Source: Octopus sinensis (lineage: Eukaryota). From it: a stretch of DNA of 64,000 nt. A model generated the notes under the pieces. The model made no database searches. It saw only the letters and a program-made list of their open reading frames with translations, and was not told the origin of the DNA. The DNA lies in assembly GCF_006345805.1 (NCBI RefSeq), contig NC_043023.1, forward strand, positions 16,120,001-16,184,000, given 5' to 3'. Below, piece by piece: positions 7,659 through 37,395 of the stretch. The position numbers and the translations under genes are program-made. Numbering within the stretch: position 1 is the first letter of the stretch; each line of letters opens with the position of its first letter.

Positions 7659-7701
7659 ATGGACATTCTGAAGTTCTTTTGTTGTTTGTCTGCATTATTT
7701 T
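7659..7701 (+). CDS. Copy A coding exon 1 (signal peptide)
   Basis: ATG at 7659, reads MDILKFFCCLSALF + T|gtaag donor. Preceded by acceptor-like ttttttcag. Homologous to 22786 and 45722. Confidence 0.8.
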
Positions 7702-9447: not shown

Positions 9448-9486
9448 GTTTGACGAGTGCAAAAGGTTATCGTATCCATCAAAATG
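9448..9486 (+). CDS. Copy A coding exon 2 (39-nt; signal peptide end and mature N-terminus)
   Basis: catcttttacag|GT...AAT G|gtaaat, phase 1-1, reads (C)LTSAKGYRIHQN. Confidence 0.78.
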
Positions 9487-12913: not shown

Positions 12914-13162
12914 CACCTGCTGTTCTCAATAGAAAGCTCATCCTTACGATAACAACACCCGATATGAAACGACCGGTGGTTTGGAAGTGCGGCTATTATA
13001 AATATCAATGTAACATGATATGCGCTGATGGCCCTAACTATAAAGTGAGACATACTGGAGATACCGCCATACTTTGGATCAGAAAAATAACTAAGAATTG
13101 TTCGACTTGGAAATTTGAAGATGGCAACCATAATGTTGGAAAAATTGATTTGGAGATAAAGA
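12914..13162 (+). CDS. Copy A coding exon 3 (Ig-like domain)
   Basis: ttctttatttcag|CA...AAG A|gtaag, 249 nt, phase 1-1. Reads (A)PAVLNRKLILTITTPDMKRPVVWKCGYYKYQCNMICADGPNYKVRHTGDTAILWIRKITKNCSTWKFEDGNHNVGKIDLEIK. Confidence 0.85.
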
Positions 13163-13334
13163 GTAAGGAAATGATTTATAATAATTTCTTTATTAACCAC
13201 AGAGGGCTAACACAAAGCAAAACATTCGGGGGGGGGGGTCCAGTGTGGGTTTTAGCATGGAAAAAGTCATACAAAGAATAAAAGAAAGTCAAAGTAAGAT
13301 CCCTGATAGTTTGGGGACTTTCAAGGGCTACACG

Positions 13335-14560
13335 TAAAGAAAGCCCACAAAATCCATGGTCCCCCTGATCACCAAGGTGGATGCCCTCTCCCAGTCTTTC
13401 CTCTCCAATATACAGGTACACTCTGAGAGAAGGCCCATTCACTCAGGTAATGCTCACCTCTCTCACCCACCTTTCAACAAAACTGCTTGGAAGCCAGCAC
13501 TTACCTCTCCACCCTGATTTTCCTCTTCAAGTGAAACCTGAAAAAGTTTATTAGGGTTTTGACAAAATGGCAATTGCTGGTCTTCAGCGCTTTCAGACAT
13601 GTCCATCACACGATCCCTTTTGCAATGGCAACTAGTCACACAGGAGAAAGCCCAAAAAATCCATGGTCCCCCTGACCACCAGGGTGGATACCCTCTCCCA
13701 GTCTTTTCTCTCCAATATACAGGTACACTCTGAGAGAAGGCCCATTCACTCAGGTAATGCTCACCTCTCTCACCCACCTTTCAACAAACTGCTTGGAAGC
13801 CAGCACTTACCTCTCCACCCTGATTTTGCTCTTCAAGTGAAACCTGATAAAGTTTATTAGGGTTTTGACAAAATGGCAGTTGCTGGTCTTCAGCGCTTTC
13901 AGACATGTCCATCACATGATCCCTTTTGCAATGGCAACTAGTTACACAGGGAGAAAGCCCACAAAATCCATGGTACCCCTGACCACCAGGGTGGATGCCC
14001 TCTCCCAGTCTACAGGTGCACACTCAGGCAACGCTCACCTCTCTCACCCATCTTCAGCCCTTTCAGACATGTCCATCACACGATCCCTTTTGCAATGGCA
14101 ACTAGTCACACAGGGAGAAAGCCCACAAAATCCATGGTCTCCCTGACCACCAGGGTGGATGCCCTCTCCCAGTCTACAGGTGCACACTCAGGCAACGCTC
14201 ACCTCTCTCACCCATCTATCAAGAAACTGCAATGGAAGCCAGCACTTCCACCCTTACTTTTCTCTTTATCCTTATTTGTCTCTTCTTCAAACCTGAAAAA
14301 GATTATTTGAGCTTCAACAAAAGGACAACTGCTGGTCATCAGCCCTTTCAGACATGTCTACCACATGATCCCTTTTGCAATGGCAACTAGTCACACAGGG
14401 AGAAGCCCACAAAATCCATGGTCCCCCTGACCACCAGGGTGGATGCCCTCTCCCAGTCTACAGGTGCACACTCAGGCAACGCTCACCTCTCTCACCCATC
14501 TATCAAGAAACTGCAATGGAAGCCAGCACTTCCACCCTTATTTTTCTCTTTATCCTTATT
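13335..14560 (+). repeat. Complex intronic tandem repeat (~300-bp and ~180-bp modules)
   Basis: Recurring gaaagcccacaaaatccatggtccccctgaccaccagggtggatgccctctcccagtct. A shorter version occurs at 29880-30415 and 52560-53090. Confidence 0.8.
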
Positions 14561-14765
14561 AATTAACATTAACATGATATTTTGATGAAAGGTTTTAATT
14601 TAGCTCACTTTAAATTAGGGAATTTTCACTATGGAAACAAGGGCAGTCTTGAGCAAGTTGATATGAAGAGTGTATATAAATGATATGTTTTATTGTTTAT
14701 CTTTGTGTGTGATATGACACCAATATCTGTGGCATATGATGATATCACATTGAAATCTTTTGCAG

Positions 14766-14842
14766 GTGGAGCACACGGAACCAGCAGCCTCAGAAACAAG
14801 TCCATCCTTGTCATTGGGATGATAACTGCCGTCATCATTTAA
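14766..14842 (+). CDS. Copy A last coding exon, via a probable in-frame downstream acceptor (shortened stalk)
   Basis: The usual acceptor is mutated (ctttgtgtgt instead of ctttgtag|gt, ~14707). aaatcttttgcag|GT at 14766 keeps frame and reads (S)GAHGTSSLRNKSILVIGMITAVII*. Confidence 0.55.
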
Positions 14843-15099
14843 ATATTTTAAGAAATACCAGTAATAATCTCAGGTGCTGGAAGGACACTCCTTTGATATT
14901 TAGTCCAGTGCTATGTGGGTAGGAAGCAAGCATTTTACCACATAACCATGCCTGCCACCTATAATTTAATAAATAAGAAATTTTATAAATTTGATTTTGA
15001 TGTACACCAGCCTTGTTATAAACTTTTACTGTTTAAATTACTGCCACTCGATTTATGCTGTCAGCGTCATCGTCGAATCAACATCCAGGTTTCTAAAAC

Positions 15100-16960
15100 C
15101 CGGAAGCTGAAAGAAGCCCGCCATGCGTCTGTGTTTGTCCGCCCCAACATCGCTTGACAACCGGTGCTGGTGTGTTTACGTTCCCGTAACAAAGAATAAG
15201 TTCTGGGGTCGATTTGATCGACTAAAGGCGGTGCTCCAAATGACTGAAACAAGTAAAAGAGTATATATATATCTCTTACTTGTTTCAGTCATTTGACTGC
15301 GGCCATGCTGGAGCACCGCCTTTAGTCAAGCAACTCGACCCCGAGACTCATTCTCTGTAAGCTCAGTACTTATTCTATCAGTCTCTTTTGCCGAACCGCT
15401 AAGTGACAGGGACGTAAACACACCAGCATCGGTTGTCAAGCAATGCTAGGGGGACAAACACAAACACAAACGCACACATACATACATATATATATATACA
15501 CATGTACGACAGGCTTCTTTCAGTTTCCGTCTACCAAATCCACTCACAAGGCTTTGGTCGGCCCGAGGCTATAGCAGAAGGCACTTGTCCAAGATGCCAC
15601 GCAGTGGGACTGAACCCGGAACTATGTGGTTAGTAAACAAGCTACTTACTACACAGCCACTCCTGTGCCTATATACGATGGGCTTCTTTCAGTTTCCGTC
15701 TACCAAATCCACTCACAAGGCTTTGGTCGGCCTGAGGCTATAGCAGAAGACACTTGCCCAAGGTGCCATGCAGTGGGACTGAACCCGGAACCATGTGGTT
15801 GGTAAGCAAGCTACTTACCACACGGCCACTCCTGCGCCTATATATTCTTTTAGGTGTGTGTTTTCCCCTACCCCCATTCCTACCGTCACTTGTCAAGCTG
15901 TGTTAGTATGTTTATATACCCATGATCTTGACCGATAAAATAAATGCCAGGCTAACAAAGAATAAGTCCTGGGATTGATTTCTCCAACTGATCCCATTGT
16001 TCAAGAAGTCTCCCTCCTGCTGTTCACCCAAGTGTCAAGACATCAACAGCCGAGTGCCACATCATCATTGCCACACTGGTGGCATTTCCATACTGGTTCT
16101 CAGGCAAGTGGTTGTTTTTTTCTTTTTTGTTTATGTTGGAGGAACAGATGAAGGGCCAAACCATTAGGGGCTAGACTTCCTTTTCTACCTCCAACCCTGC
16201 TTTATCTCTTTTTACTCTTTTACTTGTTTCAGTCATTTGACTGCGGCCATGCTGGAGCACCGCCTTTAGTCGAGCAAATCGATCCCCAGGTCTTATTCTT
16301 TGTAAGCCCAGTACTTATTCTATCGGTCTCTTTTGCCGAACCGCTTAGTTACGGGGACGTAAACACACCAGCATCGGTTGTCATGCAATGCTAGGGGGCG
16401 ACAAACACAGACACACAAACATATACACATACGTATACATATATACGACGGGCTTCTTTCAGTTTCCGTTTACCAAATCCACTCACAAGACTTTGGTCGG
16501 CCCGAGGCTATAGTAGAAGACACTTGCCCAAGGTGCCACGCAGTGGGACTGAACCCGGAACCATGTGGTTGGTAAGCAAGCTGCTTACCACACAGCCACT
16601 CCTGCACCTATATACATATACGACGGGCTTCTTTCAGTTTCCGTTTACCAAATCCACTCACAAGACTTTGGTCGGCCCGAGGCTATAGTAGAAGACACTT
16701 GCCCAAGGTGCCACGCAGTGGGACTGAACCCGGAACCATGTGGTTGGTAAGCAAGCTGCTTACCACACAGCCACTCCTGCACCTATATACATATACGACG
16801 GGCTTCTTTCAGTTTCCGTTTACCAAATCCACTCACAAGACTTTGGTCGGCCCGAGGCTATAGTAGAAGACACTTGCCCAAGGTGCCACGCAGTGGGACT
16901 GAACCCGGAACCATGTGGTTGGTAAGCAAGCTACTTACCACACAGCCACTCCTACGCCTT
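15100..16960 (-). mobile_element. Cluster of SINE family 1 copies, including three tandem 175-bp heads (16440-16960)
   Basis: Direct consensus matches. The counterpart lies at 37775-39445. Confidence 0.8.
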
Positions 16961-17059
16961 TATTTATTTATTTTTTACAGAAACCCCCTTTTCGGGTACG
17001 GTGATTACGAAGCTGGAAAAAAAAAGAAAGGCAAAATTCAGCATCTCAAAATTTCATTC

Positions 17060-17745
17060 CTCGACTAAATAAGTACCAGTTATGCACTGGGGTCGTTGTA
17101 ATCGACTTAATCCGTTTGTCTATCTTTGTTTAGCCCCTTGTGGGTAGTAAAGAAATAGGTATTTCGTCTGTCGTAACGTTCTGAGTTCAAATTCCGCCGA
17201 GGTCGACTTTGCCTTTCATGCTTTCAGGGTCGATTAAATAAGTACCAGTTACGCACTGGGGTCGATGTAATCGACTTAAACCGTTTGTCTGTCCTTGTTT
17301 GTCCCCTCTGTGTTTAGCCCCTTGTGAGTAGTAAAGAAATAGGTATTTCGTCTGCCGTTACGTTCTGAGTTCAAATTCCGCCGAGGTCGACTTTGCCTTT
17401 CATCCTTTCGGGGTCGATAAATTAAGTACCAGTTACGCACTGGGATCGATGTAATCGACTTAAACCGTTTGTCTGTCCTTGTTTGTCCCCTCTGTGTTTA
17501 GCCCCTTGTGGGTAGTAAAGAAATAGGTATTTCGTCTGCCGTTACGTTGTGAGTTCAAATTCCGCCGAGGTCGACTTTGCCTTTCATCCTTTCGGGGTCG
17601 ATAAATTAAGTACCAGTTACGCACTGGGATCGATATAATCGACTTAAACCGTTTGTCTGTCCTTGTTTGTCCTCTCTGTGTTTAACCCCTTGTGGGTAGT
17701 AAAGAAATAGGTATTTCGTCTGTCGTAACGTTCTGAGTTCAAATT
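17060..17745 (+). repeat. Tandem array of SINE family 2 body modules (~4 x 180 bp)
   Basis: Head-to-tail ggtatttcgtctgccgttacg...gtagtaaagaaata units. Confidence 0.85.
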
Positions 17746-18209
17746 TTGGGCGTTGTGCCTAGTAGAGTAGAAAAGAACGTGAACGAACAAGCACACACAC
17801 ACAACCCATAAGCTATTTCTCCTCCTCATCCCATTTTAGCAGCTATTACGGATGTCACGAAAATATCCGAAGTGAATTGTCGAGTCGTCACAGAAACAAC
17901 GGAGTTCTTGTTATAATTTTTGTCGAGACAAAACGAAGGAACACGCCCCAAAGTTTCAAACTCTTTTGTTAAAAAATAACAATTAGCAATTAATTAAAGA
18001 ACAAACAAAAAAAAACCAGATTGGTGAAAAGAAAGCAGCTCGGATAACGGACAGAGTCAACAACTATTGAAAAGGTTGGAAGAGGCAAAGAAAACTTTAG
18101 GAATAATAGGTAATTAGCGGAAACTTTAACGGTGAGTGTGTTAAATAACAAAGCACCTTGCATCAGCACGAACTCGCATGAAAATCTTGCAAACCGAACC
18201 CCAAAACGA

Positions 18210-18651
18210 AATGCATGTATGTATGTGTGTATGTACGTATGTATGTATGTATGTGTGTATGTATGTATGTGTGTGTATGTATGTATGTATGTATGTATGC
18301 ATGCATGCATGCATGTATGTATGTGTGTATGTACGTATGTATGTATGTATGTATGTATGTATGTATGTATGTGTGTATGTGTGTATGTATGTATGTATGT
18401 ATGTATGTGTGTATATATGTGTGTATGTGCGTATGTATGTATGTATGTGTGTGTGTATCTATGTATGTATGTATGTTCATATGTATGTATGTATGTAAGT
18501 ATCTATGTATGTGCGTATGTACGTAAGTATGTATGTATGTGTGTGTATGTACGTATGTATGTATGTATGTACGTACGTACGTATGAAACGTAAGTATGTA
18601 TGTATGTGGGTATGTATGTACGTACGTATGGAACGTAAGTATGTATGTAAG

Positions 18652-18682
<31 letters not shown>

Positions 18683-19120
18683 GTATGTAAGTATGTATGT
18701 ATGTAAGTATGTATGTATGTACGTACGTATGGAACGTAAGTATGTATGTAAGTATGTATGTATGTAAGTATGTAAGTATGTATGTATGTAAGTATGTATG
18801 TATGTACGTACGTATGGAACGTAAGTATGTATGTAAGTATGTATGTATGTATGTATGTATGTACGTACGTATGGAACGTAAGTATGTATGTAAGTATGTA
18901 TGTATGTAAGTATGTAAGTATGTATGTATGTAAGTATGTATGTATGTATGTATGTATGTACGTACGTATGGAACGTAAGTATGTATGTAAGTATGTATGT
19001 ATGTATGTATGTAAGTACGTATGTGTGTATGTATGTATGTATGTATGTATGTACGTACGTATGGAACGTAAGTATGCATGTAAGTATGTGTGTATGTGTG
19101 TATGTATGTATGTATGCATT
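18210..19120. repeat. (TATG)n microsatellite with higher-order gtacgtacgtatggaacgtaa motif
   Basis: Direct reading; it is the source of the HTYI/MYVC ORFs. Confidence 0.95.
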
Positions 19121-19714
19121 ATTTGATTAAAAAACAAAAAAAAAGTCAGTGTTTTGGCTGATGTCACTCACATAAGTCGGGTTGTTGAATGATACAGATT
19201 GTAGATGATGACGTTGGCATCCTTTTTGTGTCTCTGGAGGCAATGGAATTGCGCATAAAATAATCTAGTCTAGCTTTTACATTTCATGTCCTCATATATA
19301 TATCCTGCTGTGGCTGCGTAGTCCTATCCTGGACAAACACTCCTTCGGTACTACTTGAGAACAGTAGTCCAGGTGCGCGCACTCACGTAGTCAGGCATCC
19401 GCGCTAGCTAGTCGTGACTAGTCGATCCTACAACGACTAACCTAGCTAAGTAAATAAAACACAAAATAAATATTTGGCGATCCTTCGGTATAAGTACACA
19501 CGTGACTTTGTTTACATTTCTGAAGATAAAAGAAACCTTTTTCTCCCACCCCTAACCCTAACCCTAAGACAAACCCCCCATATATAAAAAAAAAACACTT
19601 TCTTGAAATGTATCTGGTACTTATACCGAAGTTATGCCAAATATTTTTTTTGCGCAAAGTAAATAATTTTTGTTTAACAAAGTAAATAAAACACACACAA
19701 AAAAGTAATTTTTT

Positions 19715-19886
19715 TGGAGTGGTAAGTTGCTTGTTTACCAACCACATGGTTCCGGGTTCAGTCTCACTGCGTGGCACCTTGGACAAGTGTCTTCTACTAT
19801 AGCCTCGGGCCGACCAAAGCCTTGTGAGTGGACTTGGTAGACAGAAACTGAAAGAAGCCCGTCGTATATATATATATAAGCCCGTC

Positions 19887-19938
<52 letters not shown>

Positions 19939-20325
19939 GACGGGCTTCTTTCAGTTTCCGTCTACAAAATACACTCACAAGGCTTTGGTCGGCTCGAGGC
20001 TATAGTAGAAGACACTTGTCCAAGGTGCCACGCAGTGGGACTGAACCCGGAACCATGTGGTTCGTAAACAAGCTACTTACCACACAGCCACACATATGTG
20101 TGTTGTGCGTGTGTGTTTGTGTGTCTGTGTTTGTCTCCCTAGCATTGCTTGACAACCGATGCTGGTGTGTTTATGTCCCCGTCACTTAGCGGTTCGGCAA
20201 AAGAGACCGATTGAATAAGTACTGGGCTTACAAAAGAATAAGTCCCGGGGTCGATTTGCTCGACTAAAGGCGGTGCTCCAGCATGGCCGCAGTCGAATGA
20301 CTGAAACAAGTAAAAGAGTAGAAGA
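19715..20325. mobile_element. SINE family 1 (+) with a minus-strand SINE head nested in its (TA)n
   Basis: + head at 19716-19865, minus head at ~19935-20090 and + body at 20100-20325. Duplicated at 42655-43270. Confidence 0.75.
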
Positions 20326-20489
20326 GAGAGTAACGTGGGAAAATGCCATGTTCTAGAACCGCGATTTCCGCTGTAATTAAGAAAGAAAAAATCAAGGGAT
20401 TTGGCTGCTATTTCAGGTCACATGGCGGAGATGTAAACGGAACCCTTCCCTCCTTTAATTTAGGGTTTTGGTGTTAGGGTTACGGAAAA

Positions 20490-20820
20490 TAAAAGTGAAA
20501 ATGAAACAAAACAGCACAGCTCCTTCCATGACTTTAGGAAACATTTTTTCACGCTTAGAGTTGCTGAAGCATGGAACAAACTGCCGGCATCAGTTGTTAG
20601 TTGTCGGATCACTGCATCCTTCAAAACTTCCATGCTTCCTGAGATTCGCCAACACTACACCTGAGCTTTCTCCCCTCCATACACACAAGCAAGCATCTAT
20701 CTGACTCATACACTGTTCACTCCCCAGACATTTGTACATTACTGCAAATGCTTTATACGCACTTTTGACAAGTTGTGGGGGCACCTGAGCACTGTATACA
20801 ATAATTTCATTAATTATTAA
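20490..20820 (+). mobile_element. CR1-like LINE extreme 3' end
   Basis: HDFRKHFFTLRVAEAWNKLPASVV frame, then tail ...cacctgagcactgtatacaataat. Confidence 0.75.
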
Positions 20821-20821
20821 T

Positions 20822-20889
<68 letters not shown>

Positions 20890-20999
20890 TCATATATGAT
20901 TTATACGCACTTTTGACAAGTTGTGGTGCACCTGAGCACTGTATACAATAATTTCATTATTTATTAATACACACACACACACACACATATATATAATAA

Positions 21000-21856
21000 T
21001 AATAATTGTGTACAGTGCTCAGGTGCACTACAACTCATCTAAAGTGTATATATAATCAGGTGTAGTTTCGGCGGATTTCGGAAAGCATGAGGGCCTTAAA
21101 GGATGCAGTGTCATGGCAGTCAACAACTGACGCAGGCAGTTTGTTCCATGCTTCAGCAACTCTGAGCGTGAAAAAATGTTTCCGAAAGTCATGGGAGCTG
21201 TATTGTTTTCTGACTTTGTAGGCATGTCCACGTGTGTTAGACACATGGAGATCAAAAAGGTGGTCAGTGTTGTTGTTGGTGAGGTGGTTGATAACTTTGT
21301 GGGTGTTTACCAAGTCCGTCGCCAAACGCCGGAGCTTCAGTGAATCCATGCCCAGGGAAACAAGGCGCTCAGAATATGGTAGGTGTCTGATGGAGGGTAT
21401 GCGTTTGGTTGCACGTCTCTGGACAGATTCCAGGAGGTCAATGTTCTGTGCAAGATAGGGGTTCCAAACTGATGATGCGAATTCCAAGTGTGGTCGTACC
21501 ATAGCTGTATACAGTTTTAAATAGATGGCTGGAGAGCGGCTAACAAAAGACCTGCTGAGTGATGCCAAGACACCCTCGGCCTTCCTGACAATCTTAGAGA
21601 TATGCTTTGACCAACGCAAATCACTGCTGACAGTGATGCCTAGGTCACGTTCGCAAGAGGATTTCTTGATATCAGTGTTGTGGAGGGAGTAAGTGAACGC
21701 AGGGTTTTTTCTCCCAAAATGCATGGTGGTACACTTGTCCACAGCCAGTTTCAGTTGCCAGTCTGTGATCCATTGCTGCATTGTGTCTAGGTCTGATTGC
21801 AGGAAAGAGTTGTAGACATCAGGATCTGTCCTCTTGATTTCAAGGTACATCTGCAA
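21000..21856 (-). mobile_element. CR1-like LINE 3' fragment
   Basis: LQSDLD...ERDLGITVSSDLRWSKHI...LYTAMVRPHLEFASSVWNPY...LESVQRRATK...TRGHAYK...FFTLRVAEAWNKLP is the classic CR1 ORF2 C-terminus. Confidence 0.92.
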
Positions 21857-22785
21857 TCATATATGCTTTATACGCACTTTTGACAAGTTGTGGTGCACCT
21901 GAGCACTGTATACAATAATTTCACTATTATTTATTTATGAAGAAATTGGAAGAGGAGGGAGGACAAAAACGTCTTTCCGAAAATAGCTGAAAAAACCCTA
22001 AAAGCAGTAGAAATGCCCGAACGATGGTGGTGCTGTCATGAAATAAACATGCTTCAGATAGATTCGTTTATTTATTCATACAAACGTAATTGAGATAAAA
22101 TAGGTCCATAAATAACAGTGACAAACGAAATGTATACACCGCCGGAAGTCGACAAAGAACCGCAGTAATTTTATTCACGTCATTGATTGGTTAAAATTAC
22201 CGAAATACACCAACTTTAAAACGAAATAACTTCGAAAATACAAATTTTTCTCAACAACACTCAGAGTAAAAGATGTTTTATACGACACATTCTACCGAAT
22301 CGGATCGGATCGGATCGATGGAAAGGTTCCGTTTATATGAGTCATCTCATCAATTGTCTCTCTTTAACACTTTCATTTTCGTATTTCTCCCGTGATATCT
22401 TGAAAATTTGTGGACGATTTCAGGCGAGCGATTCCCTAAACTAGGTTTTCACACCCGGAAAAACGGTAAACAACGTTTGATTTTTCTGTATGAAGGACAA
22501 ATACATAATGTAGTTAAAATCTTATCAAATTTATGAAGAAAAAATTGCGTATTATTTAAGCGAAATTTCTCTGACACATCAGAGAGTTAAGATTATATTT
22601 ATGAAAGTGAAACTAAAGCATTTAATTTTTAGTATCATCCGTTAAGATTACGGACGTTCGACGATAATAATGATGATGACGATGACTCTTAATTAGATAT
22701 CTACTATTGTTTGCTTGTTGTGAAATTAGTGGAACTGAAATAATTTTTGTTGTTTTTCAGGTTTAGAAAATTATTTTCACAGATC

Positions 22786-22822
22786 ATGGACATTCTAAAG
22801 TTCTGTTTGTCTGCATTATTTT
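22786..22822 (+). CDS. Copy B coding exon 1 (signal peptide)
   Basis: ATG GAC ATT CTA AAG TTC TGT TTG TCT GCA TTA TTT T|gtaag = MDILKFCLSALF. Confidence 0.8.
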
Positions 22823-22967
22823 GTAAGTTTTTATTATTCTTTTTCTTCATAATTCACTCTTGTTAATTACCCCTATACAGGTGGACACAAATCTGAAATA
22901 CGTCCTACATCAATTGGGTTTTCTCTGTTTTGATGGGGACTTTTCAAATGGTTTTTTTTCATAACAA

Positions 22968-23985
22968 ACTTAAGCCTTTCGTCACTGTATTTATTTTGAG
23001 ATGCTCTGTGTTTCTTTCAATTATTTTAAATATTACAAAGAATTTAGTAAAATAACTTAGTTATCATTCAGCTAGTGTCAGGAACATAAATTGTGCCTAA
23101 GGTTTGGTGGAAGATTTTAATTCAAAACTTATGAAAACAAGACATTTGTACTACAGGGTCAGAGTTGGTTTCAGCTGGGTTGGTACCAAAAGGGTTAAGA
23201 ATTGTTTCTCTATTATATATTTTAACCCTTTTGTTACCATATTTCTGTTGAGATGTTCTGTGTTTCTTTCAATTAATTTTAAATATAACAAAGAATTTAG
23301 TAAAATAACTTAGTTATTGTTAAGCTAGTGTTAGGAACATAAATTGTGACTAAGGTTTGGTGGAAGATTTTGATTCAAAACTTATGAAAACAAGACATTT
23401 GTACTCAGAGCCAGAGCCGGTTTCAGCCGGGTTGGTAACAAAAGGTTAAGAATTGTTTCTCTATTATATATTTTAACCCTTTTGTTACCATATTTCTGTT
23501 GAGATGCTCTGTGTTTCTTTCAATTATTTTAAATATAATAAAGAATTTAGTAAAATAACTTAGTTATTGTTAAGCTAGTGTTAGGAACATAAATTGTGAC
23601 TAAGGTTTGGTGGAAGATATTAATTCAAAACTTTTGAAAACAAGACATTTGTACTACAGGGTCAGAGGTGGTTTCAGCCAGGTTCATATCAAAAGGGTTA
23701 AGAATTGTTTCTCTATTATATATTTTTAACCCTTTTGTTACCATATTTCTGTTGAGATTTTCTGTGTTTCTTTCAATTAATTTTAAATATAACAAAGAAT
23801 TTAGTAAAATAATTTAGTCATCATTAAGCTAGTATTAGGAACATAAATTGTGACTAAGGTTTGGTGGAAGATTTTAATTCAAGACTTATGAAAACAAGAC
23901 ATTTGTACTACAGGGTCAGAGGTGGTTTCAGCCAGGTTGGTATCAAAAGGGTTAAGAATTGTTTCTCTATTATATATTTTTAAAG
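22968..23985. repeat. Tandem array (~4 x 252 bp) of a piggyBac-like MITE
   Basis: Units TTAA-cccttttgttacca...tggtaacaaaaggg-TTAA. One unit occurs in copy A (~7850-8078) and three in copy C (~45905-46665). Confidence 0.75.
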
Positions 23986-24822
23986 ATGATAGGAGAAAGC
24001 TTTTTATGAAAAAAAACAATTTTTGAAAATTTATTAAAAAAAAAATTGGTTGTCTCACATGAAACTTAGGATTTGTCGGTATTAATGTGTGTGTAATAAC
24101 TAAATTTTTTCTACATTAACCTTTGATGTAATAATATACAAACACTAAAATATATACTCTTTTACTTGTTTCAGTCATTTTTTTCACCTGAATCCCTTCT
24201 CTACCCAGCCCCAGACCGATTTTTTTTTTTGCACTAAGCCCTCGAAAACCATGGCAAAATCCTTTTCGGTAAAGGTTTATTTGTCAGTCTGCCATTTGAC
24301 AGGGGTCTGGAATAGGGCACCCACATAAATTGGTCTATCTCTGTTTTGACAGGTACTTTTTACCCACTGCGTGGCATCTTGGGCAAGGGTCTTCTGCTAT
24401 AGCCCCGGGCCGACCAAAGCGTTGTGAGTGGATTTGGTAGACGGAAACTGAAAGAAGCCCGTCGTATATATATGTGTTTGTGTGTCTGTGTTTGTCCCCG
24501 TAGCACTGCTCGACAACCGATGCTGGTGTATTTACGTCCCCGTCACTTAGCGGTTCAGCAAAAGAGACCGATAGAATAAGTACTGGGCTTACAAAGAATA
24601 AGTCCCGGGGTCGATTTGCTCGACTAAAGGCGGTGCTCTAGCATGGCCGCAGTCAGGTGGCTGAGACAAGTAAAGAGTAAGAGTAATCTAACCCTTGTGG
24701 GGATCCTGATCTGAAACTCTGCCAATGAAATAGCCATTTTCCTTCTAATGTAACGTTCATTTATTCACAATATTTTGAATAATTTCATCTTAAAATCAAA
24801 AATTTGTTTTCATCTTTTACAG

Positions 24823-24861
24823 GTTTGGCAAGTGCGGCAAGTTATGAAATTAAGCAAAGTG
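24823..24861 (+). CDS. Copy B coding exon 2
   Basis: catcttttacag|GT...AGT G|gtaaat, 39 nt, reads (C)LASAASYEIKQS. Confidence 0.8.
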
Positions 24862-24912
24862 GTAAATAATGGATAAACAAACCTTTTTCCCCTTTTAAAC
24901 TAGACATTACCT

Positions 24913-25341
24913 GGATCTTTTCCGTTTGACCAGCAGTTTTTAAAAATAATTTCCACGTAACTAGACACGTTTAAACTTCGTATACTGGTAGAATGTGTTT
25001 ATAAAACATCTTTTTCTCTTGGCTTTATCGAGAAAATTCTATAGTTGTAAGATATTTGTTGTTTTTTTTCCTTCAATTTCTGCAATTTCAACCAATCAAT
25101 GACGTCTATTGAGGTAAAAAAAAAGCACATTCTGTGCCGTATGAATATGTCCCTCGTTTAAGAAACAGATTGAGTTTATTTACATTTCTGAAGAAGGAAA
25201 GATACCCTTCCCCCACCCCTAATCCTAACTTTAACCCTAAAACAGATTGAAATGCAATAGATCGATACTAGGGTCATAATTATGGGTGACAATTTCATAT
25301 GACACCGCTAGAAAAAACTGCCGTTCAAACCGAAAAGATCC
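24913..25341. mobile_element. hAT-like MITE in intron 2 of copy B
   Basis: TIRs ggatcttttccgtttgac / gttcaaaccgaaaagatcc with perfect 8-bp TSD cattacct. Copy C counterpart at 47594-48023. Confidence 0.85.
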
Positions 25342-25704
25342 CATTACCTTTTCAGTTCTGTCTTCTATTTCTTTCTCTTAATTCAAAGCTTTTAGTCACT
25401 ATTTTGCTTTTGGTTTCTTTAAAGTTTTTATTCTGACCATCGAGAAGGGCTAAAGAGCCAGAAATACACATTGAGGAAACACTAGAGCAGTGGGTTTTAA
25501 CCAGGGTCAAGATGGCTTGTGGGGGTACTTATAAAATGGCCACCTTCAATCTTGCCATGGATCCAACAAGCCACAGCATTGTGGCAGGCTCCTTTGCAGG
25601 CATTGGCAAGGTTTCGATTTCTTGATGACCTTCCTAACACTGACCCCTTTACAAAGTGTGGTGGGTGCATTTTTTTATTATTGCACACCTTTCCTTTTTT
25701 ATTA

Positions 25705-26116
25705 TGCATACCTTTCCTTCTTGGGACACAAAACTCTACTTGTGAAGACCTGTTGAGGCAAGTGGGAATCAAAATCAAAATCGATCAACATCAATGGAAA
25801 TTGTAGCTGTGATACCAGTGCCGGTGGCACGTAAAAAGCACCATCGGAACGTGGCCAGCGCCGCCCCGACGGGCCTCCGTGCCAGTGGCATGTAAAAAGC
25901 ACCAGCCGATCTTGGCCGTTTGCCAGCCTCACCTGGCACATAAAAAGCACCCACTACACTACACTCACGGAGTGGTTGGCGTTAGGAAGGGCATCCAGCT
26001 GTAGAAACATTGCCAGATCAGATTGGGCCTGGTGCAGCCTTCTGGCTTCACAGACCCCGGTCGATCCATCCAACCCATGCTAGCATGGAAAGTGGACGTT
26101 AAACAATGAGGATGAT
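25705..26116 (+). mobile_element. RTE 3' UTR fragment, absent at the orthologous site in copy A
   Basis: Matches 5795-6250; counterpart at 48385-48798. Confidence 0.75.
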
Positions 26117-27078
26117 ATAAACACTACTGAATTGGTTTCCATTTCTCTGGGATTATGATTGTCATTCTAAAGAGGATTATGGTTACGATGCTTATCCTCC
26201 GTCATTCAAGGTCCACGTTCCATGCTGGCATCATTGACCCCTTTTCGGTGCCAATCATTTTACAGTGCACTGGAGCCTTTCTTTGCACATAACTGGCCCC
26301 TAGTGAAGTCACCAAATAACGGGAAAGGCAAAGGAAGAGGAAGGAAACAAACCTTCACTGAAGAGCATAGTAGAGAGGGAGATGGTTTTATGTCAGGTGT
26401 TGAGAGGTATACCAGGTATGATAGAAACACAGGTGAGCTGGCAGAATCGTTAGCACGGCGGGCGAAAAGGCTTAGCGGTATATCGTCTGCCGCTACATTC
26501 TGAGTTCAAATTCCGCTAAGGTCGACTTTACCTTTCATCCTTTTGGGGTTGATTAAATAAGTACCAGTTATGCACTGGAGTCGATGTAATCGACTTAATA
26601 CCTATGTCTGCCCTTGTTTGTCTCCTCTATGTTTAGCCCCTTGAGGGTAGTAAAGAAATAGGTATTTCGTCTGTCTTTACGTTCTGAGTTCGAATTCCGC
26701 CGAGGTTGACTTTGTCTTTCATCCTTTCGGGATCGATAAATTAAGGACAAGTTACGCACTGGGGTCGATGTAATCGCCTTAATCCGTTTGTCTGTCCTCA
26801 TTTAGCCCCTTATGGGTAGTAAAGAAATGGGTATGATAGAAGGACAGGAAACCGTGTCTTACTGCAGTGACCCTGCATTATATAAGGGTGGGTGGGAGTG
26901 AGTGGATAGGGACATGGTTTAATCAGGGGTACACCCATGTCTGATGAAGTTATGTTCCAGTAAACATAAATCTCATTAAATTAAAACTCATTAGGCTGAG
27001 TGTAATTAGATGTCTAATTTCTTTTGATGGTCTCTATTGCACATTTTCCCTTTTAATTTCCAGGGGCAAAACTATTAA

Positions 27079-27608
27079 CCCTTTAGCATTCAGATTATTC
27101 GGTCAAATGTAATCCTTTTTTATTCTCAATGTTTTGGATTAATCATGGATTATCTCATAGCTTTGAGATTTCAATGATGTGATGCTTTATTTCCAGAATG
27201 ACATTGTAGTTTAGATGGGAGAGGTCAGATATGGCTAGTTTGAACATCAGACAAGTAGAGTACTTGGATCTGATATCACTAGGCACCATTCGAGCGTGAT
27301 CGTTACCAACGTCACCTTACTGGCACCTGTGCCGGTGGCATGTGTAAAAAGATTCGAGCGAGGTCTTTGCCAGTACCACCTGAGGGGCCCCCGTGCCAGT
27401 GGCACATAAAAAGCACCCACTACACTCTCGGAGTGGTTGGCGTTAGGAAGGACATGCAGCTGTAGAAACTCTGCCAGATCAAGATTGGAGCCTGGTGCAG
27501 CCATCTGGTTCGCCAGCCCTCAGTCAAAATCGTCCAACCCATGCTAGCATGGAAAGCGGATGTTAAACGATGATGATGATGATATTCACTAGTTTAAATG
27601 CTAAAGGG
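27079..27608. mobile_element. piggyBac-like MITE with a nested RTE tail fragment
   Basis: TTAA-ccctttagcatt...aatgctaaaggg-TTAA; RTE 3' end at ~27283-27583. Confidence 0.65.
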
Positions 27609-28217
27609 TTAAATTTGGACGTGAGGTGAAGGCCTGGCTGTGATTAGGAACTTTTCTTTCCAAGCGCATAATTTAAGGTCCAGTCCCCCTGTATGGCACC
27701 TTGTTTAAGTGTCCTCCACTATAGCCCCAGGCCAGCAAAAGCCTTGTGAGTGGATTAGGTAGACAGGAGCTAAAAGGAGCCCACTGTGTGTATATATGGG
27801 ATGTTATAGCCTTGTTTGGAAACAGATGAAGGTTTGTGACAGGAAGAGCATCCTACTGTTGAGAATGAAAAACTCTTATCCACAAAGCATGGAACAGGGG
27901 GCATCATAATGATGCTGATGTTCTGCCTTAAAGGGTTTCCGGTTGAATGAATTGACCCCAGGACTTATTCTATTGGTCTCTTTTGCTGAACCACTAAGTT
28001 ACTGGGACGTAGACACACCAATACTTATTGGCAAGTGGTAGTGAGAAACAAGCACACATATAAACAAACAACAGGCTTCTTTCAGTTTCCGTCTACCAAA
28101 TCCACACAGGCTGCAGTAGAAGACACTTGCCCAGGGTGCCACGCAGTGGGACTGAACCCGGAACCATGGGGTTGGTAAACAAACTACTTACCACACAGCC
28201 ACTCCTGCGCCTATATA

Positions 28218-28298
<81 letters not shown>

Positions 28299-28560
28299 GT
28301 ATATATATGTATATATAAACAATGGGCTTCTTTCAGTTTCCATCTATCAAATACACTCACGAGCCTTTGAAACACACAAGTGTGTATGTATATATATACA
28401 CACACACATACAATGGGCTTCTTTCAGTTTCCATCTTGAAAATCCACTCACAAGCCTGATGCTGTAGTAGAAGACACTTTCCCAAGGTGCTCTGCAGTGG
28501 GACTGAACCCAGAACCGTATGATTGAAAAGCAAACTTCTTAACTGATTTCTTTATTTCAG

Positions 28561-28809
28561 GAACTGCTGTGCTCAATGGAAACGTCACCCTTTCGATAAC
28601 AATATCTGATATGGAACGACCGGTGGTTTGGAAGTGCGACAATTATAAATATGAATGTGACAGGACATGCGCTGATGGCACTGACTATAAAGTAACACAT
28701 AGTGGAGATACCTCCAAGCTTTGGATCAGAAAAGTAACTGAGAAATGTTTGACTTGGAAATTCGAAGATGAGAACCTTAATGTTGGAAAAATTGATTTGG
28801 ATATAAAGA
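28561..28809 (+). CDS. Copy B coding exon 3 (Ig-like domain)
   Basis: tttatttcag|GA...AAG A|gtaag, 249 nt. Reads (G)TAVLNGNVTLSITISDMERPVVWKCDNYKYECDRTCADGTDYKVTHSGDTSKLWIRKVTEKCLTWKFEDENLNVGKIDLDIK, with an NVT glycosylation sequon. Confidence 0.85.
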
Positions 28810-29020
28810 GTAAGGAAATGATTTATAATAATTTCTTTATTAACCACAGAGGGCTAACACAAAGGAAAACATTCGGGAGGGTACAGTGTGGGTTTTAGCA
28901 TGTAAAAAGTCATACAAAGAATAAAAGAAATTCAAAGTAAAACCCCTGATAGTGGGGGGACTTTCAAGGGCTACACGTAAAGAAAGCCCACAAAATCCAT
29001 GGTCTCCCTGACCACCAGGG

Positions 29021-29880
29021 TTTCATTTCATTTCATTTCATTTGAGTTTGAGTCCATGCTCAGGCCAAGTCGAAGACTCCACCCTCCGAGTCTGGTGTGG
29101 TTGCCAGGTTGTATTCTCTGTTTAATTTTGACATGTGTAGGAGCGAGTTTGAGTCAGTTTGTGCTCGTTGTGTATATCCTGGGAGATGGGGTTCATCTCT
29201 AATGGTGCTTAAGTATCTGTCCAGCTGCAAATTGAATGATTCCACACTGCATCCTGATAGATTTCTGACATGTACCGGAATGGAGTTGAATAGTTGTGCT
29301 CCTCGAACCAACAGACTTGACTCTCGCAGGGTTTTTGCTGCCTGGCCAGCCTTTTTGTTGATTGGTGGTAGCTGGCAGCGTCTTCCGTGGCGCAGTGAGT
29401 GGTAGGTTTTGATACCAAAGTTTGGTACCTTTTGCTCTATCATTTTCCAAATGTATATAATTCGGTATCGCTCAAATCTTCTTTCTATTGAGTACATCTT
29501 CAAGGTTTTGAGTCTTTGCCAATAGTCCAGGTCCCTCGTTTCTGAGAAGTATGAGGTAAAATTTCTTTGGAGCGATTCCATCTTAGATAGTTGGCCTTTT
29601 GTTGTTGGTGACCACAACTGAGAACAGTAGTCAATCCTCGGAAGTATCATACTGTTCCAGAGGGTTTTCATTGTTGAGGTATCTCTTGATTTGAAGGTGT
29701 GCAAGATCCACCCGCTGTACTTTCTTGCAGTAAGACAGACTGAGTCAAGGTGTTCTCTGAATTTTAGGCTGGTTCCCATGTGGATGCCTAAATCTTTCAC
29801 ATACTGTTTTTCCATTATTTGTTGTCCTGATGGGTTTCTGTAGTTTGTTGTATTTTTCAGACCTTGATCTGTTCCGTAGC
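29021..29880 (-). mobile_element. 5'-truncated CR1/L2-clade LINE in intron 3 of copy B
   Basis: VKDLGIHM...LWNSMILPRIDYCSQLWSP...ESLQRNFT...DYWQRLKTLKMYSIERRFERYRIIYIWK, with (TGAAA)n tail. Absent in copy A; the first ~20 aa of the ORF come from flanking sequence. Confidence 0.9.
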
Positions 29881-30489
29881 GGGTTGATGCCGTCTCCCGG
29901 TCTTTCCTCTCCAATATACAGGTACACTCTGAAAGAAGGCCCATTCACTCAGGTAATGCTCACCCACCTTTCAACAAACTGCTTGGAAGCCAGCACTTAC
30001 CTCTCCACCCTGATTTTCCTCTTCAAGTGAAACCTGAAAAAGTTTATTAGGGTTTTGATAAAATGGCAATTGCTGGTCTTCAGCGCTTTCAGACATGTCC
30101 ATCACACGATCCCTTTTGCAATGGCAACTAGTCACACAGGGAGAAAGCCCACAAAATCCATGGTCTCCCTGACCACCAGGGTGGATGCCCTCTCCCAGTC
30201 TACAGGTGCACACTCAGGCAATGCTCACCTCTCTCACCCATCTATCAAGAAACTGCAATGGAAGCCAGCACTTCCACCCTTACTTTTCTCTTTATCCTTA
30301 TTTGTCTCTTCTTCAAACCTGAAAAAGATTATTTGAGCTTCAACAAAAGGACAACTGCTGGTCATCAGCCCTTTCAGACATGTCTACCACATGATCCCTT
30401 TTGCAGTGGCAACCAGAGAGATAAGGTAACTGCTTGCCCTTCCTGGCTGAAGGAAAGCGGTGAGGCCAGCTTCTCGATGGACTCAGCTG

Positions 30490-31080
30490 ATCTCATCATC
30501 ATCATCACCATCGTTTAGCGTCCGCTTTCCATGCTAGCATGGGTTGGACGGTTCGACCGGGGTCTGGGAAGCCAGAAGGCTGCACCAGGCCCAGTCTGAT
30601 CTGGCAATGTTTCTACAGCTGGATGCCCTTCCTAACGTCAACCACTCCATGAGTGCAGTGGGTGCTTTTTATGTGCCACCGGCACAGGTGCCAGACGAGG
30701 CTGGCAACGGCCACGGTCGGATTGGTGCATTTTACGTGCTACCGGCACGAGGGCCAGGCAAGGCTGGCAATGGCCATGATCGGATGGTTCTCTTATGTAC
30801 CACCGGCACTAGTATCACATCTGCAATTTCCATTGATGTTGATCTGTTCTGTCTGTCTGTCTGTGTGTGTCTTCTAGGATCTCGGGCATCCTCCATCCGA
30901 TTGCGCTCAAATTTGATATGTAGATACCAACGGTATCAGGGCATGTATAAGTCTTGAAAATAAGTCTTGCCAGATCAAGATTGAAGCCTGGTGCAGCCAT
31001 CTGGTTCGCCAGCCCTCAGTCAAATCGTCCAAACCATGTTAGCATGGAAACAGATGTTAAATGATGATGATGATGATGAT
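30490..31080. mobile_element. Two oppositely oriented RTE 3' UTR fragments
   Basis: (CAT)n-led minus copy at 30490-30845 and + copy at 30965-31080. Duplicated at 53170-53760. Confidence 0.7.
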
Positions 31081-31328
31081 TTAATTGTTCATGTGAAAGA
31101 AGAATTCAAAGAGAAAAATATTAATAGCAACAATTGACAAAACCACTGTCTTTACTTTTGCTTTTTAACTTTTCTAAATGATGGACTGATCTATGGACCT
31201 TTCCACTTTTGTGCTAGAAGGAAGAAAATTAATCCCCTTTGCTAATGTTGTAAAAGAGGACATGATCTGAAGAGAACATATAATCTTTTAGACATAGTAA
31301 TCTAGGATACTGATGTGTATTAACCCTT

Positions 31329-34300
31329 GGATCTTTTCCGTTTGACTGGCAGTTTTTTAAAATAATTTCCACGTAACTAAACACTTTTAAACTTCGTATA
31401 CTGGTAGAATGTGTTTATAAAACATCTTTTTCTCTTGGCTTTATTGAGAAAATTCTATAGTTTGAGAAAATTCTATAGTTTGTAAGATATTTGGGATCTT
31501 TTCGGTTTGAACGGCAGTTTTTAAAATAATTTCCATGTAACTAAACACTTTTAAACTTCGTATACTGGTAGAATGTGTTTATAAAACATCTTTTTCTCTT
31601 GGCTTTATTGAGAAAATTCTATAGTTTGTAAGATATTTGCGATCTTTTCGGTTTGACCGGCAGTTTTTTAAAATAATTTCCACGTAACTAAACACTTTTA
31701 AACTTCGTATACTGGTAGAATGTGTTTATAAAACATCTTTTTCTCTTGGCTTTATTGAGAAAATTCTATAGTTTGTAAGATATTTGGGATCTTTTCGGTT
31801 TGAACGGCAGTTTTTTAAAATAATTCCACGTAACTAAACACTTTTAAACTTTGTATACTGGTAGAATGTGTTTATAAAACATCTTTTTCTCTTGGCTTTA
31901 TTGAGAAAATTCTATAGTTTGTAAGATATTTGGGATCTTTTCGGTTTGAACGACAGTTTTTTAAAATAATTTCCACGTAACTAAACACTTTTAAACTTTG
32001 TATACTGGTAGAATGTGTTTATAAAACATCTTTTTCTCTTGGCTTTATTGAGAAAATTCTATAGTTTGTAAGATATTTGGGATCTTTTCGGTTTGAACGA
32101 CAGTTTTTAAAATAAATTCCACGTAACTAAACACTTTTAAACTTCGTATACTGGTAGAATGTGTTTATAAAACATCTTTTTCTCTTGGCTTTATTGAGAA
32201 AATTCTATAGTTTGTAAGATATTTGGGATCTTTTCGGTTTGACCAGCAGTTTTTTAAAATAATTTCCATGTAACTAAACACTTTTAAACTTCGTATACTG
32301 GTAGAATGTGTTTAAAAACATCTTTTCTCTTGGCTTTATTGAGAAAATTCTATAGTTTGTAAGATATTTGGGATCTTTTCGGTTTGACCGGCAGTTTTTT
32401 AAAATAATTTCCACGTAACTAAACACTTTTAAACTTCGTATACTGGTAGAATGTGTTTATAAAACATCTTTTTCTCTTGGCTTTATTGAGAAAATTCTAT
32501 AGTTTGTAAGATATTTGGGATCTTTTCGGTTTGAACGGCAGTTTTTTAAAATAAATTCCACGTAACTAAACACTTTTAAACTTTGTATACTGGTAGAATG
32601 TGTTTATAAAACATCTTTTTCTCTTGGCTTTATTGAGAAAATTCTATAGTTTGTAAGATATTTGGGATCTTTTCGGTTTGACCGGCAGTTTTTTAAAATA
32701 ATTTCCACGTAACTAAACACTTTTAAACTTCGTATACTGGTAGAATGTGTTTATAAAACATCTTTTTCTCTTGGCTTTATTGAGAAAATTCTATAGTTTG
32801 TAAGATATTTGGGATCTTTTCGGTTTGACCGGCAGTTTTTTAAAATAATTTCCACGTAACTAAACACTTTTAAACTTCGTATACTGGTAGAATGTGTTTA
32901 TAAAACATCTTTTTCTCTTGGCTTTATTGAGAAAATTCTATAGTTTGTAAGATATTTGGGATCTTTTCGGTTTGAACGACAGTTTTTTAAAATAATTCCA
33001 CGTAACTAAACACTTTTAAACTTTGTATACTGGTAGAATGTGTTTATAAAACATCTTTTTCTCTTGGCTTTATTGAGAAAATTCTATAGTTTGTAAGATA
33101 TTTGGGATCTTTTCGGTTTGAACGGCAGTTTTTTAAAATAATTTCCACGTAACTAAACACTTTTAAACTTCGTATACTGGTAGAATGTGTTTATAAAACA
33201 TCTTTTTCTCTTGGCTTTATTGAGAAAATTCTATAGTTTGTAAGATATTTGGGATCTTTTCGGTTTGAACGACAGTTTTTTAAAATAATTTCCACGTAAC
33301 TAAACACTTTTAAACTTCGTATACTGGTAGAATGTGTTTATAAAACATCTTTTTCTCTTGGCTTTATTGAGAAAATTCTATAGTTTGTAAGATATTTGGG
33401 ATCTTTTCGGTTTGAACGGCAGTTTTTTAAAATAATTTCCACGTAACTAAACACTTTTAAACTTTGTATACTGGTAGAATGTGTTTATAAAACATCTTTT
33501 TCTCTTGGCTTTATTGAGAAAATTCTATAGTTTGTAAGATATTTGGGATCTTTTCGGTTTGAACGGCAGTTTTTTAAAATAATTTCCACGTAACTAAACA
33601 CTTTTAAACTTCGTATACTGGTAGAATGTGTTTATAAAACATCTTTTTCTCTTGGCTTTATTGAGAAAATTCTATAGTTTGTAAGATATTTGGGATCTTT
33701 TCGGTTTGAACGGCAGTTTTTAAAAATAATTTCCACGTAACTAAACACTTTTAAACTTCGTATACTGGTAGAATGTGTTTATAAAACATCTTTTTCTCTT
33801 GGCTTTATTGAGAAAATTCTATAGTTTGTAAGATATTTGGGATCTTTTCGGTTTGAACGGCAGTTTTTTAAAATAATTTCCACGTAACTAAACACTTTTA
33901 AACTTCGTATACTGGTAGAATGTGTTTATAAAACATCTTTTTCTCTTGGCTTTATTGAGAAAATTCTATAGTTTGTAAGATATTTGGGTCTTTTCGGTTT
34001 GAACGGCAGTTTTTAAAATAATTTCCACGTAACTAAACACTTTTAAACTTCGTATACTGGTAGAATGTGTTTATAAAACATCTTTTTTCTCTTGGCTTTA
34101 TTGAGAAAATTCTATAGTTTGTAAGATATTTGGGATCTTTTCGGTTTGAACGGCAGTTTTTTTAAAATAATTCCACGTAACTAAACACTTTTAAACTTCG
34201 TATACTGGTAGAATGTGTTTATAAAACATCTTTTTCTCTTGGCTTTATTGAAAAAATTCTATAGTTTGTAAGATATTTGGGATCTTTTCGGTTTGAACGG

Positions 34301-35479: not shown

Positions 35480-35929
35480 TAATCCTTTTGTTTTATATTT
35501 GTATTTCTGCCAAAATCATTGCCTTGTTTCAGGTAATTTTTTAAATATAAAGAATTTAGTAAAATGACTTCATCACTCCTAAACTGGGGTTTGGAAATAA
35601 ATTACTATGAAATTTTAATGAAAGGTTTTAATTTATCATTTTAAACCTTTTGTTATTTTAATTCTGTGAAAATACACTGGCTTCTTTTTGTTTTTTACAA
35701 TTGGGTTGCAAGATTCTTTATGTGAGTTCGTGTGTTTGAAGCTATTCTGTTGTGTCTGGGGAGAGTCATTTTTCTTTTTGTGCCTTATAATGTACACAAT
35801 CACACCGGTAAAATTTCCACTTATTTCTTATTTTTATTTTCCTAAAATTCGTTGTGTCTTGAACCTTTTCAATAGTCAAGACTATTGAAAATGTTGCAAG
35901 ACACAACGAACATTTTAGGAAAATAAAAA

Positions 35930-37347: not shown

Positions 37348-37395
37348 ATGAAAAGTGTATATAAATGACATATGTTTTACTGTTTATCTTTGTAG

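Follow-up and report, generated by a model that had tools for sequence, protein, structure and literature searches.

Recent diversifying selection in a young clade of octopus immunoglobulin-like exons, and candidate recognition proteins

A 64,000-nucleotide (nt) stretch of the Octopus sinensis genome (assembly GCF_006345805.1, contig NC_043023.1, positions 16,120,001 to 16,184,000 of the forward strand; hereafter the window) carries several copies of a small gene whose 249-nt immunoglobulin (Ig)-like exon appears to change faster than the introns around it. Has this exon been diversified by selection, or do homogenised introns only make it look fast, and what might the encoded proteins do? We find gene duplication, sequence exchange between the copies and, in a young clade of the exon, nonsynonymous divergence (dN) above synonymous divergence (dS). 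By comparison with better-known systems, these would probably be octopod cell-surface or secreted recognition proteins under pathogen-driven diversification in the manner of the CEACAM family, a reading that we favour with considerable reserve. Cephalopod immune and self-recognition receptors are little known, and the octopus family is a concrete candidate.

Comparison of the window with itself reveals three complete four-exon gene copies (A, B and C), along with the final exon of one more gene, Z. The layout runs from a leader exon through a 39-nt micro-exon and the 249-nt Ig exon to an anchor exon, and the introns of A, B and C are in phase 1 throughout, with GT–AG ends. The coding parts of A and B are as follows.

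7659..7701, + strand: gene A exon 1, coding part; signal-peptide-like leader with a phase-1 donor
9448..9486, + strand: gene A exon 2, 39-nt micro-exon; end of the leader and predicted strand A
12914..13162, + strand: gene A exon 3, 249-nt Ig exon; predicted strands B–G
14766..14842, + strand: gene A exon 4, predicted glycosylphosphatidylinositol (GPI)-signal tail; stop three codons earlier than in C
22786..22822, + strand: gene B exon 1, coding part; leader (database protein P0001)
24823..24861, + strand: gene B exon 2, 39-nt micro-exon
28561..28809, + strand: gene B exon 3, Ig exon
37444..37499, + strand: gene B exon 4, frame shifted by a 1-nt deletion; second acceptor at 37396

An earlier note on this locus had counted 35 differences in the 249 nt of exon 3 between A and B, with 29 of 83 codons changing the amino acid and 3 differing purely synonymously, and 13 differences in the 39 nt of exon 2; our recount agrees exactly. 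The four cysteines, the three tryptophans and the core motifs that it quoted are all conserved between the two Ig exons, and its flank counts also hold (the 129 intronic nt leading up to the acceptor differ at 3 sites, and beyond the donor there is a single substitution ahead of a G-run indel). These flanks are, however, the best-conserved parts of the introns. Across seven collinear A/B intron blocks, 204 of 3475 columns differ (5.9%), so the contrast with the exon, at 14%, is smaller than the flanks had implied while still being clear (Fisher p = 6e-6). It is the replacement sites that exceed the introns (p = 5e-6); the silent sites do not (p = 0.38). Multi-nucleotide mutation is an unlikely cause, the 35 differences being spread over 32 codons. 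Exon 2 was rejected as a selection signal for this pair, as its proportion of synonymous differences (pS, 0.43) is above that of nonsynonymous differences (pN, 0.31) on very small counts.

Beyond this one pair, a search of the genome gave 72 matches among 90 candidates, a lower bound that comes from a single-exon query and includes redundant copies. Fifty of the 72 were extracted and 22 were not; 47 gave splice sites, 42 of these were exactly 249 nt long, and 35 usable distinct exons resulted, with identical copies counted once. L021, L022 and L072 were left out because they yielded no in-frame splice pair, L067, L068, L071, L077 and L078 because their lengths differ from 249 nt, and L075 because its indels compensate one another; six identical duplicates were dropped as well. 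L022 (G000:C10488) and L021 have a frame broken near one end and are otherwise almost identical to L005 and L020; they are likely redundant contigs or sequencing errors.

Pairs of exons split by silent divergence, with pS of at most 0.24 inside a young group and of at least 0.44 between that group and older exons (for the three older exons listed). The 14 young exons are all 249 nt long, with open frames and GT–AG ends; they share intron flanks and, with L074 added, form a clade with 98% ultrafast bootstrap. Over their 91 pairs the mean divergence is 0.068 in the flanks, 0.104 for pS and 0.159 for pN, with pN above pS in 72 pairs and above the flank in 88. Codon site models, fitted with our own GY94 code and naive empirical Bayes (NEB) rather than Bayes empirical Bayes assignment, point the same way. 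A single dN/dS ratio (omega, model M0) is 1.80 with F3x4 and 1.91 with F61 codon frequencies, omega fixed at 1 is rejected (p = 0.0017), and M8 places about 40% of sites at an omega of 4.1–4.7. Twice the log-likelihood difference (2dL) reaches 43.3 and 47.7 for M8a against M8 and 43.2 and 47.6 for M1a against M2a (F3x4 and F61, respectively), and spans 43–53 over M1a/M2a, M7/M8 and M8a/M8. Subsets of 15, 11 and 10 exons return omega values of 2.05, 1.85 and 1.99, and the half-exons on their own trees 1.86 and 2.35. The tree-free pooled pN/pS of the young clade is 1.54, a value reached in 2 of 900 neutral and 0 of 900 M1a simulations, in which labels were shuffled over 1, 4 or 10 segments. When the models were refitted in full 15 times under a recombinant null of 4 segments, omega never passed 0.92 and 2dL never passed 15.6.

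Such nulls matter because exchange between the copies is real. Adjacent informative sites show greater compatibility than they do in shuffled order (p = 0.0005 over 76 sites; p = 0.006 for the exon and p = 0.13 for the introns, each taken alone), trees from different segments are mutually rejected in 11 of 12 approximately unbiased (AU) comparisons, and long identical tracts occur in 9 of 78 pairs (nominal p < 0.005, uncorrected): 4 within the exon, 1 spanning the acceptor and 4 in introns. One could therefore suppose that no positive selection acted, and that relaxed constraint after duplication, together with introns homogenised by conversion, makes the exon look fast. The detected recombination (neighbour-incompatibility p = 0.0005; 11/12 AU), a downstream intron that is less diverged than the silent sites and the lack of significance in the A/B pair taken alone would all suit this account. 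It nevertheless seems to us highly improbable, and is largely refuted. Tree lengths for 13 exons are 1.04 for dN, 0.59 for dS, 0.55 for the upstream intron and 0.35 for the downstream intron; since change at silent sites is about equal to that in the upstream intron, homogenised introns fail to explain the excess in the exon. Whole-domain omega is above 1, variable columns at codon positions 1, 2 and 3 number 42, 37 and 34 of 82, frames and core residues are intact, and the recombinant nulls do not reproduce the result. The earlier note had named gene conversion as the alternative, to be recognised by tracts stopping at the exon borders with dS as high as dN. Instead, the listed tracts cross the border or sit inside the exon and dS is below dN: exchange works alongside selection and does not replace it.

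Several observations weigh against a broad claim of diversification. The young clade was first picked by the pS gap among exon pairs, and the codon-bootstrap 95% interval of its pooled pN/pS, 1.0–2.55, touches 1.0. NG86 pS is larger than the divergence of the flanks in 70 of the 91 young pairs, which may point to partial homogenisation of the flanks. The A/B pair by itself is not significant (dN 0.173, dS 0.098, p = 0.28). Over all 595 pairs of the 35 exons mean pN (0.27) is below pS (0.47), and the 21 older exons, L074 among them, show a weak site signal (M1a against M2a p = 0.14, M8a against M8 p = 0.011). Their omega is 0.48, so the older paralogues are mostly under purifying selection, and the ratio at or below 1 that would speak against diversification across the paralogues is seen in these alone. 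Given this low omega and the all-pair excess of pS, what the young exons record is a burst of recent date in a single clade and not a family-wide constant.

What kind of domain carries this burst? An AlphaFold2 model of P0001, built from that protein and 36 relatives, has eight strands (21–25, 34–39, 47–51, 54–58, 68–73, 76–81, 90–94 and 100–104), with a predicted template modelling score of 0.71 and a predicted local distance difference test of at least 90 for 70 of 126 residues. Foldseek returned 151 matches at E ≤ 0.001, and all those listed are Ig folds, mostly antibody V domains (best E 7e-5, template modelling score ~0.5). VIA-align gave Z of 10–11 with Kirrel3, NCAM2, pIgR, VH domains and CD8 (for NCAM2, Z 10.8 and root-mean-square deviation 2.3 over 84 aligned residues), and the matched Ig folds include antibody VL, NCAM2, CD8 and titin. 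The Ig-like character that had been read from the letters is thus borne out by prediction and fold searches: the domain is predicted to be a V/I-type Ig two-sheet beta-sandwich (Greek key), sharing with the Ig V-set and I-set (PF07686, PF07679) the predicted strands A, B, C, C', D, E, F and G, with strand A encoded by the 39-nt micro-exon. Between V and I the model does not choose, for the C'' region has only single-residue bridges at 62 and 64 and the best structural matches mix V and I within 1 Z.

In contrast to V-set and I-set domains, the octopus domain scores below the Pfam cut-offs and has no B–F disulfide. The model places no cysteine in strands B (34–39) and F (90–94) of P0001, and in the inferred register tryptophan and phenylalanine occupy the F-strand positions expected for tyrosine and cysteine. 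The C-strand tryptophan W49 (strand 47–51) is kept in 36 of 37 aligned sequences; C58 and C62, which form a CxxxC motif, V70 and L105 are invariant in all 37, R45, P46, E57, D59, D95 and N97 are conserved in at least 90%, and C51 and C88 are common among the aligned exon peptides. Disulfides C58–C62 and C51–C88 may be proposed. Only 3 of the 37 exon-3 peptides, as queries that lack strand A, match I-set in Pfam, weakly (best E 0.011), and none matches V-set; sequence and profile searches of solved structures gave nothing below E 0.27. Pfam matches to CNRIP1 (E 0.014) and NifT, below cut-off, were rejected as chance. Because the domain falls below the Pfam Ig cut-offs, standard annotation misses the family.

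Positively selected codons are not evenly placed on this fold. With F3x4, 23 of 82 codons have NEB > 0.9; the fast sites lie at 27–42 (A'–B, including the alternating 33, 35, 37 and 39), 50, 52, 73–78 (DE turn), 83–89 (EF) and 98–106 (FG/G). None of the 23 falls in residues 53–72, the C'–C''–D block with the CxxxC motif. N-glycan sequons at 33, 64, 75, 83 and 87 are gained or lost between copies. Faces can be assigned to the variable sites from the predicted strand order, and remain provisional to that extent.

These patterns suggest how a CEACAM-like system could operate in octopods. Tandem duplication has yielded copies of a putative Ig receptor that exchange sequence. The conserved C'–C''–D block with its CxxxC motif would keep the fold or a host function, while variation on the A'–B strand, DE turn, EF and FG/G surfaces could alter microbial-ligand binding or escape it; tail-less GPI-anchored and secreted copies might serve as decoys or soluble binders. 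Passages of PMC2832619 describe a CEACAM family in which N domains diversify, conversion occurs, subclusters are inverted, stop codons in transmembrane exons give rise to GPI forms, and some members are secreted. By that description, the octopus genes resemble CEACAM and PSG genes: both are Ig genes in clusters that show birth-and-death turnover, conversion and an inverted subcluster, and both have a V-type domain that diversifies. They also carry comparable stops, inside the transmembrane exon in gene G4 of the cluster described below and at its second codon in G1 and G2.

The likeness is one of kind. No CEACAM match appeared in sequence and profile searches of solved structures or in Pfam, and CEACAM1 and CEACAM7 surface only as general Ig folds (Z 9.6–9.7); because no homology was detected, the octopus family is not a CEACAM member and CEACAM is a working model only. 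Unlike CEACAM domains, the octopus domain has the CxxxC motif and is encoded by two exons, of 39 and 249 nt; its whole-domain omega is ~1.8 against ~1 for CEACAM1 N, and its variable sites include the predicted B and E strands. Two of the differences count against the proposed function. Variable sites spread beyond the CFG face, unlike those of CEACAM1, and the transmembrane forms of the main cluster have tails of a few residues in which no immunoreceptor tyrosine-based inhibitory or activation motif (ITIM or ITAM) is visible, unlike CEACAM1 and CEACAM3.

A broad variable surface would also be expected of a self/non-self or cell-identity code, in which, as with Hydractinia Alr, clustered Dscam or protocadherins, isoform-matched homophilic adhesion favours new specificities. 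According to passages of the Alr report (PMC9546547), Alr is an invertebrate cluster of V/I-set Ig proteins devoid of B–F cysteines and carrying other disulfides, with some isoforms perhaps secreted; the octopus domains are likewise clustered, V/I-type and without the B–F disulfide, and tandem multi-domain transmembrane forms exist among them. The differences are several. The octopus domain retains the C-strand tryptophan, which Alr domain 1 mostly does not, and octopus paralogues are young and similar where Alr paralogues have low identity. Alr proteins have a V-I-(I)-Fn3-like ectodomain with a long tail and are linked to fusion or rejection; young-clade proteins consist of repeats of one domain plus an anchor, with no Fn3-like region or long Alr-type tail; cytoplasmic tails are short or absent and secreted forms are predicted. 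The near-identical B, C and C' fit a code poorly, though they may be assembly copies. We therefore hold an identity code to be a possible but unlikely explanation.

Gamete recognition typically involves small, strongly selected proteins that are GPI-anchored or secreted, and selection of that kind is usually visible between species. Reproductive recognition (gamete, spermatophore or seminal fluid), or recognition at the skin or suckers, would replace pathogens with sexual selection or chemical ligands, and the family's predicted small GPI and secreted forms would suit this. Identity of only ~70% to the closest O. bimaculoides relatives found, against 84–88% in O. vulgaris, fits a recent lineage burst. 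Here, however, many paralogues diversify inside one genome, and we consider this explanation rather less likely than an identity code.

A comparison within molluscs is also apt. FREP, MDM and CgIgIT2 are Ig-containing, immunity-linked molluscan proteins, and FREPs are diversified, according to the portions consulted of PMC11999971 and PMC13428168. The octopus family likewise consists of molluscan Ig-containing proteins. Unlike FREPs, its proteins have no fibrinogen or lectin domain listed (no fibrinogen Pfam family occurs among 25 longer relatives, and the gene models finish in anchor exons), and the family is without evidence of somatic diversification. The passages on invertebrate immune diversification and the Ig superfamily seen in the same two sources do not name an octopus family of this kind.

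How the copies are arranged bears on whether they act as separate genes. The window sits in a 0.5-Mb cluster (C27:16.10–16.63 Mb) with a mirror arrangement, in the order Z, A, B, C, D-, G3-, G2-, G1-, G4+, G5+, D'+, C'-, A'-, Z'-. Outer genes are near-identical between the arms (A and A' share 98.3% over 9 kb; B, C and C' have 0 mismatches across ~3.2 kb), and inner genes differ in sequence and domain number. The mirror is either a real palindrome or the product of two haplotypes that the assembly joined head to head without collapsing them. At its centre lies an 11.5-kb tandem repeat of 99.8% identity (G000:C27:16378230-16404101), possibly an assembly artefact.

Each inner gene has its own leader, one to three modules of micro-exon plus Ig exon, and its own terminal exon. 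G3 and G5 keep this terminal, transmembrane exon intact; in G4 a stop interrupts its hydrophobic stretch, and in G1 and G2 its second codon is a stop. O. vulgaris protein P0020 terminates at the same place as G4. The window genes end in a short hydrophobic tail with no cytoplasmic part. Over the last 15 residues the Kyte–Doolittle mean is 2.4–2.8 in four putative GPI proteins and 1.0 and -0.5 in two transmembrane forms. GPI anchoring and secretion are predicted from sequence for members of the family, and a putative GPI tail likely arose independently, from a transmembrane exon through a stop codon. With whole-domain omega close to 2, variable and conserved patches mapped, and soluble, GPI and transmembrane forms predicted, the drivers of recognition diversity in octopus can be tested by expression and binding.

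The cluster might instead be one combinatorial locus, with leaders, micro-exons, Ig exons and anchors spliced across neighbouring genes, as isoforms of LOC115225115 suggest. In clustered protocadherin or Dscam-type loci, variable exons are joined by splicing to a constant region that they share. Because every intron is in phase 1, cross-gene splicing is conceivable; database isoforms join an A'- or C'-type first domain to domains ~240 kb away with different tails, and the Ig exons at C27:3.19–3.31 Mb have arrays of differing 39-nt micro-exons between them. Each inner gene, though, has its own leader and terminal exon, and near-identical exon ends would permit mis-joins of short reads. We find the idea doubtful. 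The micro-exon arrays themselves, upstream of or between the Ig exons of L102–L104 and L109–L110 (C27:3196883-3211805 and 3296879-3307168), hold at least 6 and at least 4 micro-exons by motif scan; these could be alternative exons for strand A or a spacer that has been repeated. A single read-through gene was mostly rejected, the inner genes carrying their own leaders and terminal exons. Just as doubtful, in our estimate, is a variable Ig repertoire of the octopus's own, which would combine positive selection with arm-to-arm conversion in the 0.5-Mb mirror cluster and cross-gene, phase-1 mixing of exons and tails. If true, such a mixed repertoire would give cephalopods their first counterpart to the diversity of Dscam, VCBP or FREP.

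How far does the family extend? Exon 3 of gene B is a 100% match to Octopus sinensis database proteins (uncharacterized LOC115225109). Searching with a profile built from 37 exon peptides brought up 25 longer proteins and 6 of similar length, every one of them named as Octopus, and the same profile gave 37 hits against 1.84 billion representatives. The 19 of these 37 that were looked up comprise 12 Octopus, 2 Argonauta, 2 Haliotis, 1 bacterial repeat protein (P0050, treated as chance) and 2 unnamed; no squid or cuttlefish name is among them, which does not show absence. The link to Haliotis (abalone) is weak, at E 7.6e-15 for a five-repeat protein and 8.9e-4 for another, with a profile probability of 18%. 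Nearest clusters in the Atlas are unnamed molluscan proteins (0.93–0.94), followed by V-set clusters (0.87–0.90). Record P0033 runs from leader to tail on one 1067-nt contig and would have to be a spliced transcript or an intronless copy. A divergent subfamily (P0023, P0024, P0025, P0036, P0046 and P0047), also present in Argonauta, joins the Ig domain to a second, cysteine-rich C2-like domain; some members have a longer cytoplasmic tail, and it may be the ancestral form.

Full-text searches, whose coverage leaves out subscription papers and supplements, found no paper on the family, and 12 family gene ids gave 0 literature matches, although supplementary gene lists could still mention the loci. 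The family is apparently an undescribed octopod variant with a non-canonical domain; fast-evolving Ig clusters in general are an already known kind of system.

The remaining features of the window complete its gene content.

1257..1342, + strand: final coding exon of gene Z, with a predicted GPI-signal tail and an alternative acceptor at 1209
45722..45758, + strand: gene C exon 1, coding part; identical to B
47504..47542, + strand: gene C exon 2; identical to B
51239..51487, + strand: gene C exon 3; identical to B
59555..59640, + strand: gene C exon 4, whose predicted GPI-signal tail is intact; alternative acceptor at 59507
19100..64000, no strand: tandem duplication of ~22.7 kb containing B and C; ~99% identity across exons 1–3

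The Ig exon of Z (L018) lies just left of the window, and database protein P0084 joins the L018 domain to the Z tail. In Z, B and C exon 4 has its alternative acceptor 48 nt further upstream, which extends the product by an acidic spacer of 16 residues (database isoform P0002); gene A has lost that AG at ~14709, and a 9-nt insertion follows. The 3' parts of B and C (window 35299-37776, 37444-37800 in B) differ by 55 gap openings and 16 mismatches in 2517 columns. Because these differences are mostly single-base indels, unpolished long-read errors are suggested in the 3' part of B; the frameshift in its exon 4 is likely such an error, and that in database protein P0001 may be an artefact.

Evidence of expression is indirect. 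Database models exist for genes B and Z. In two putative RNA runs, X4 and X7, contigs begin at the exon-4 acceptor of gene A (14767 and 14766), preceded in the X7 contig by 156 other letters. Over exon 3 the X4 and X7 contigs carry paralogue-type letters, not those of A, and no RNA for exon 3 of A is listed. Splice joints are absent from the rows shown for four runs against gene A, which intronic repeats dominated. A pyrimidine tract and AG resembling an acceptor precede the leader exon at 7614-7658 and 22740-22785, so an upstream non-coding exon is likely.

The introns are rich in repeats. Intron 3 holds a 147-bp satellite, with 24 copies in B (31462-34986) and 23 in C (54007-57379), and the introns are also filled with 184-, 254- and 169-bp tandem repeats and many repeats resembling short interspersed nuclear elements. 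Between and inside the genes, 20520-21860 and 29040-29870 hold what we take, by eye, to be reverse-transcriptase-like fragments of long interspersed nuclear elements.

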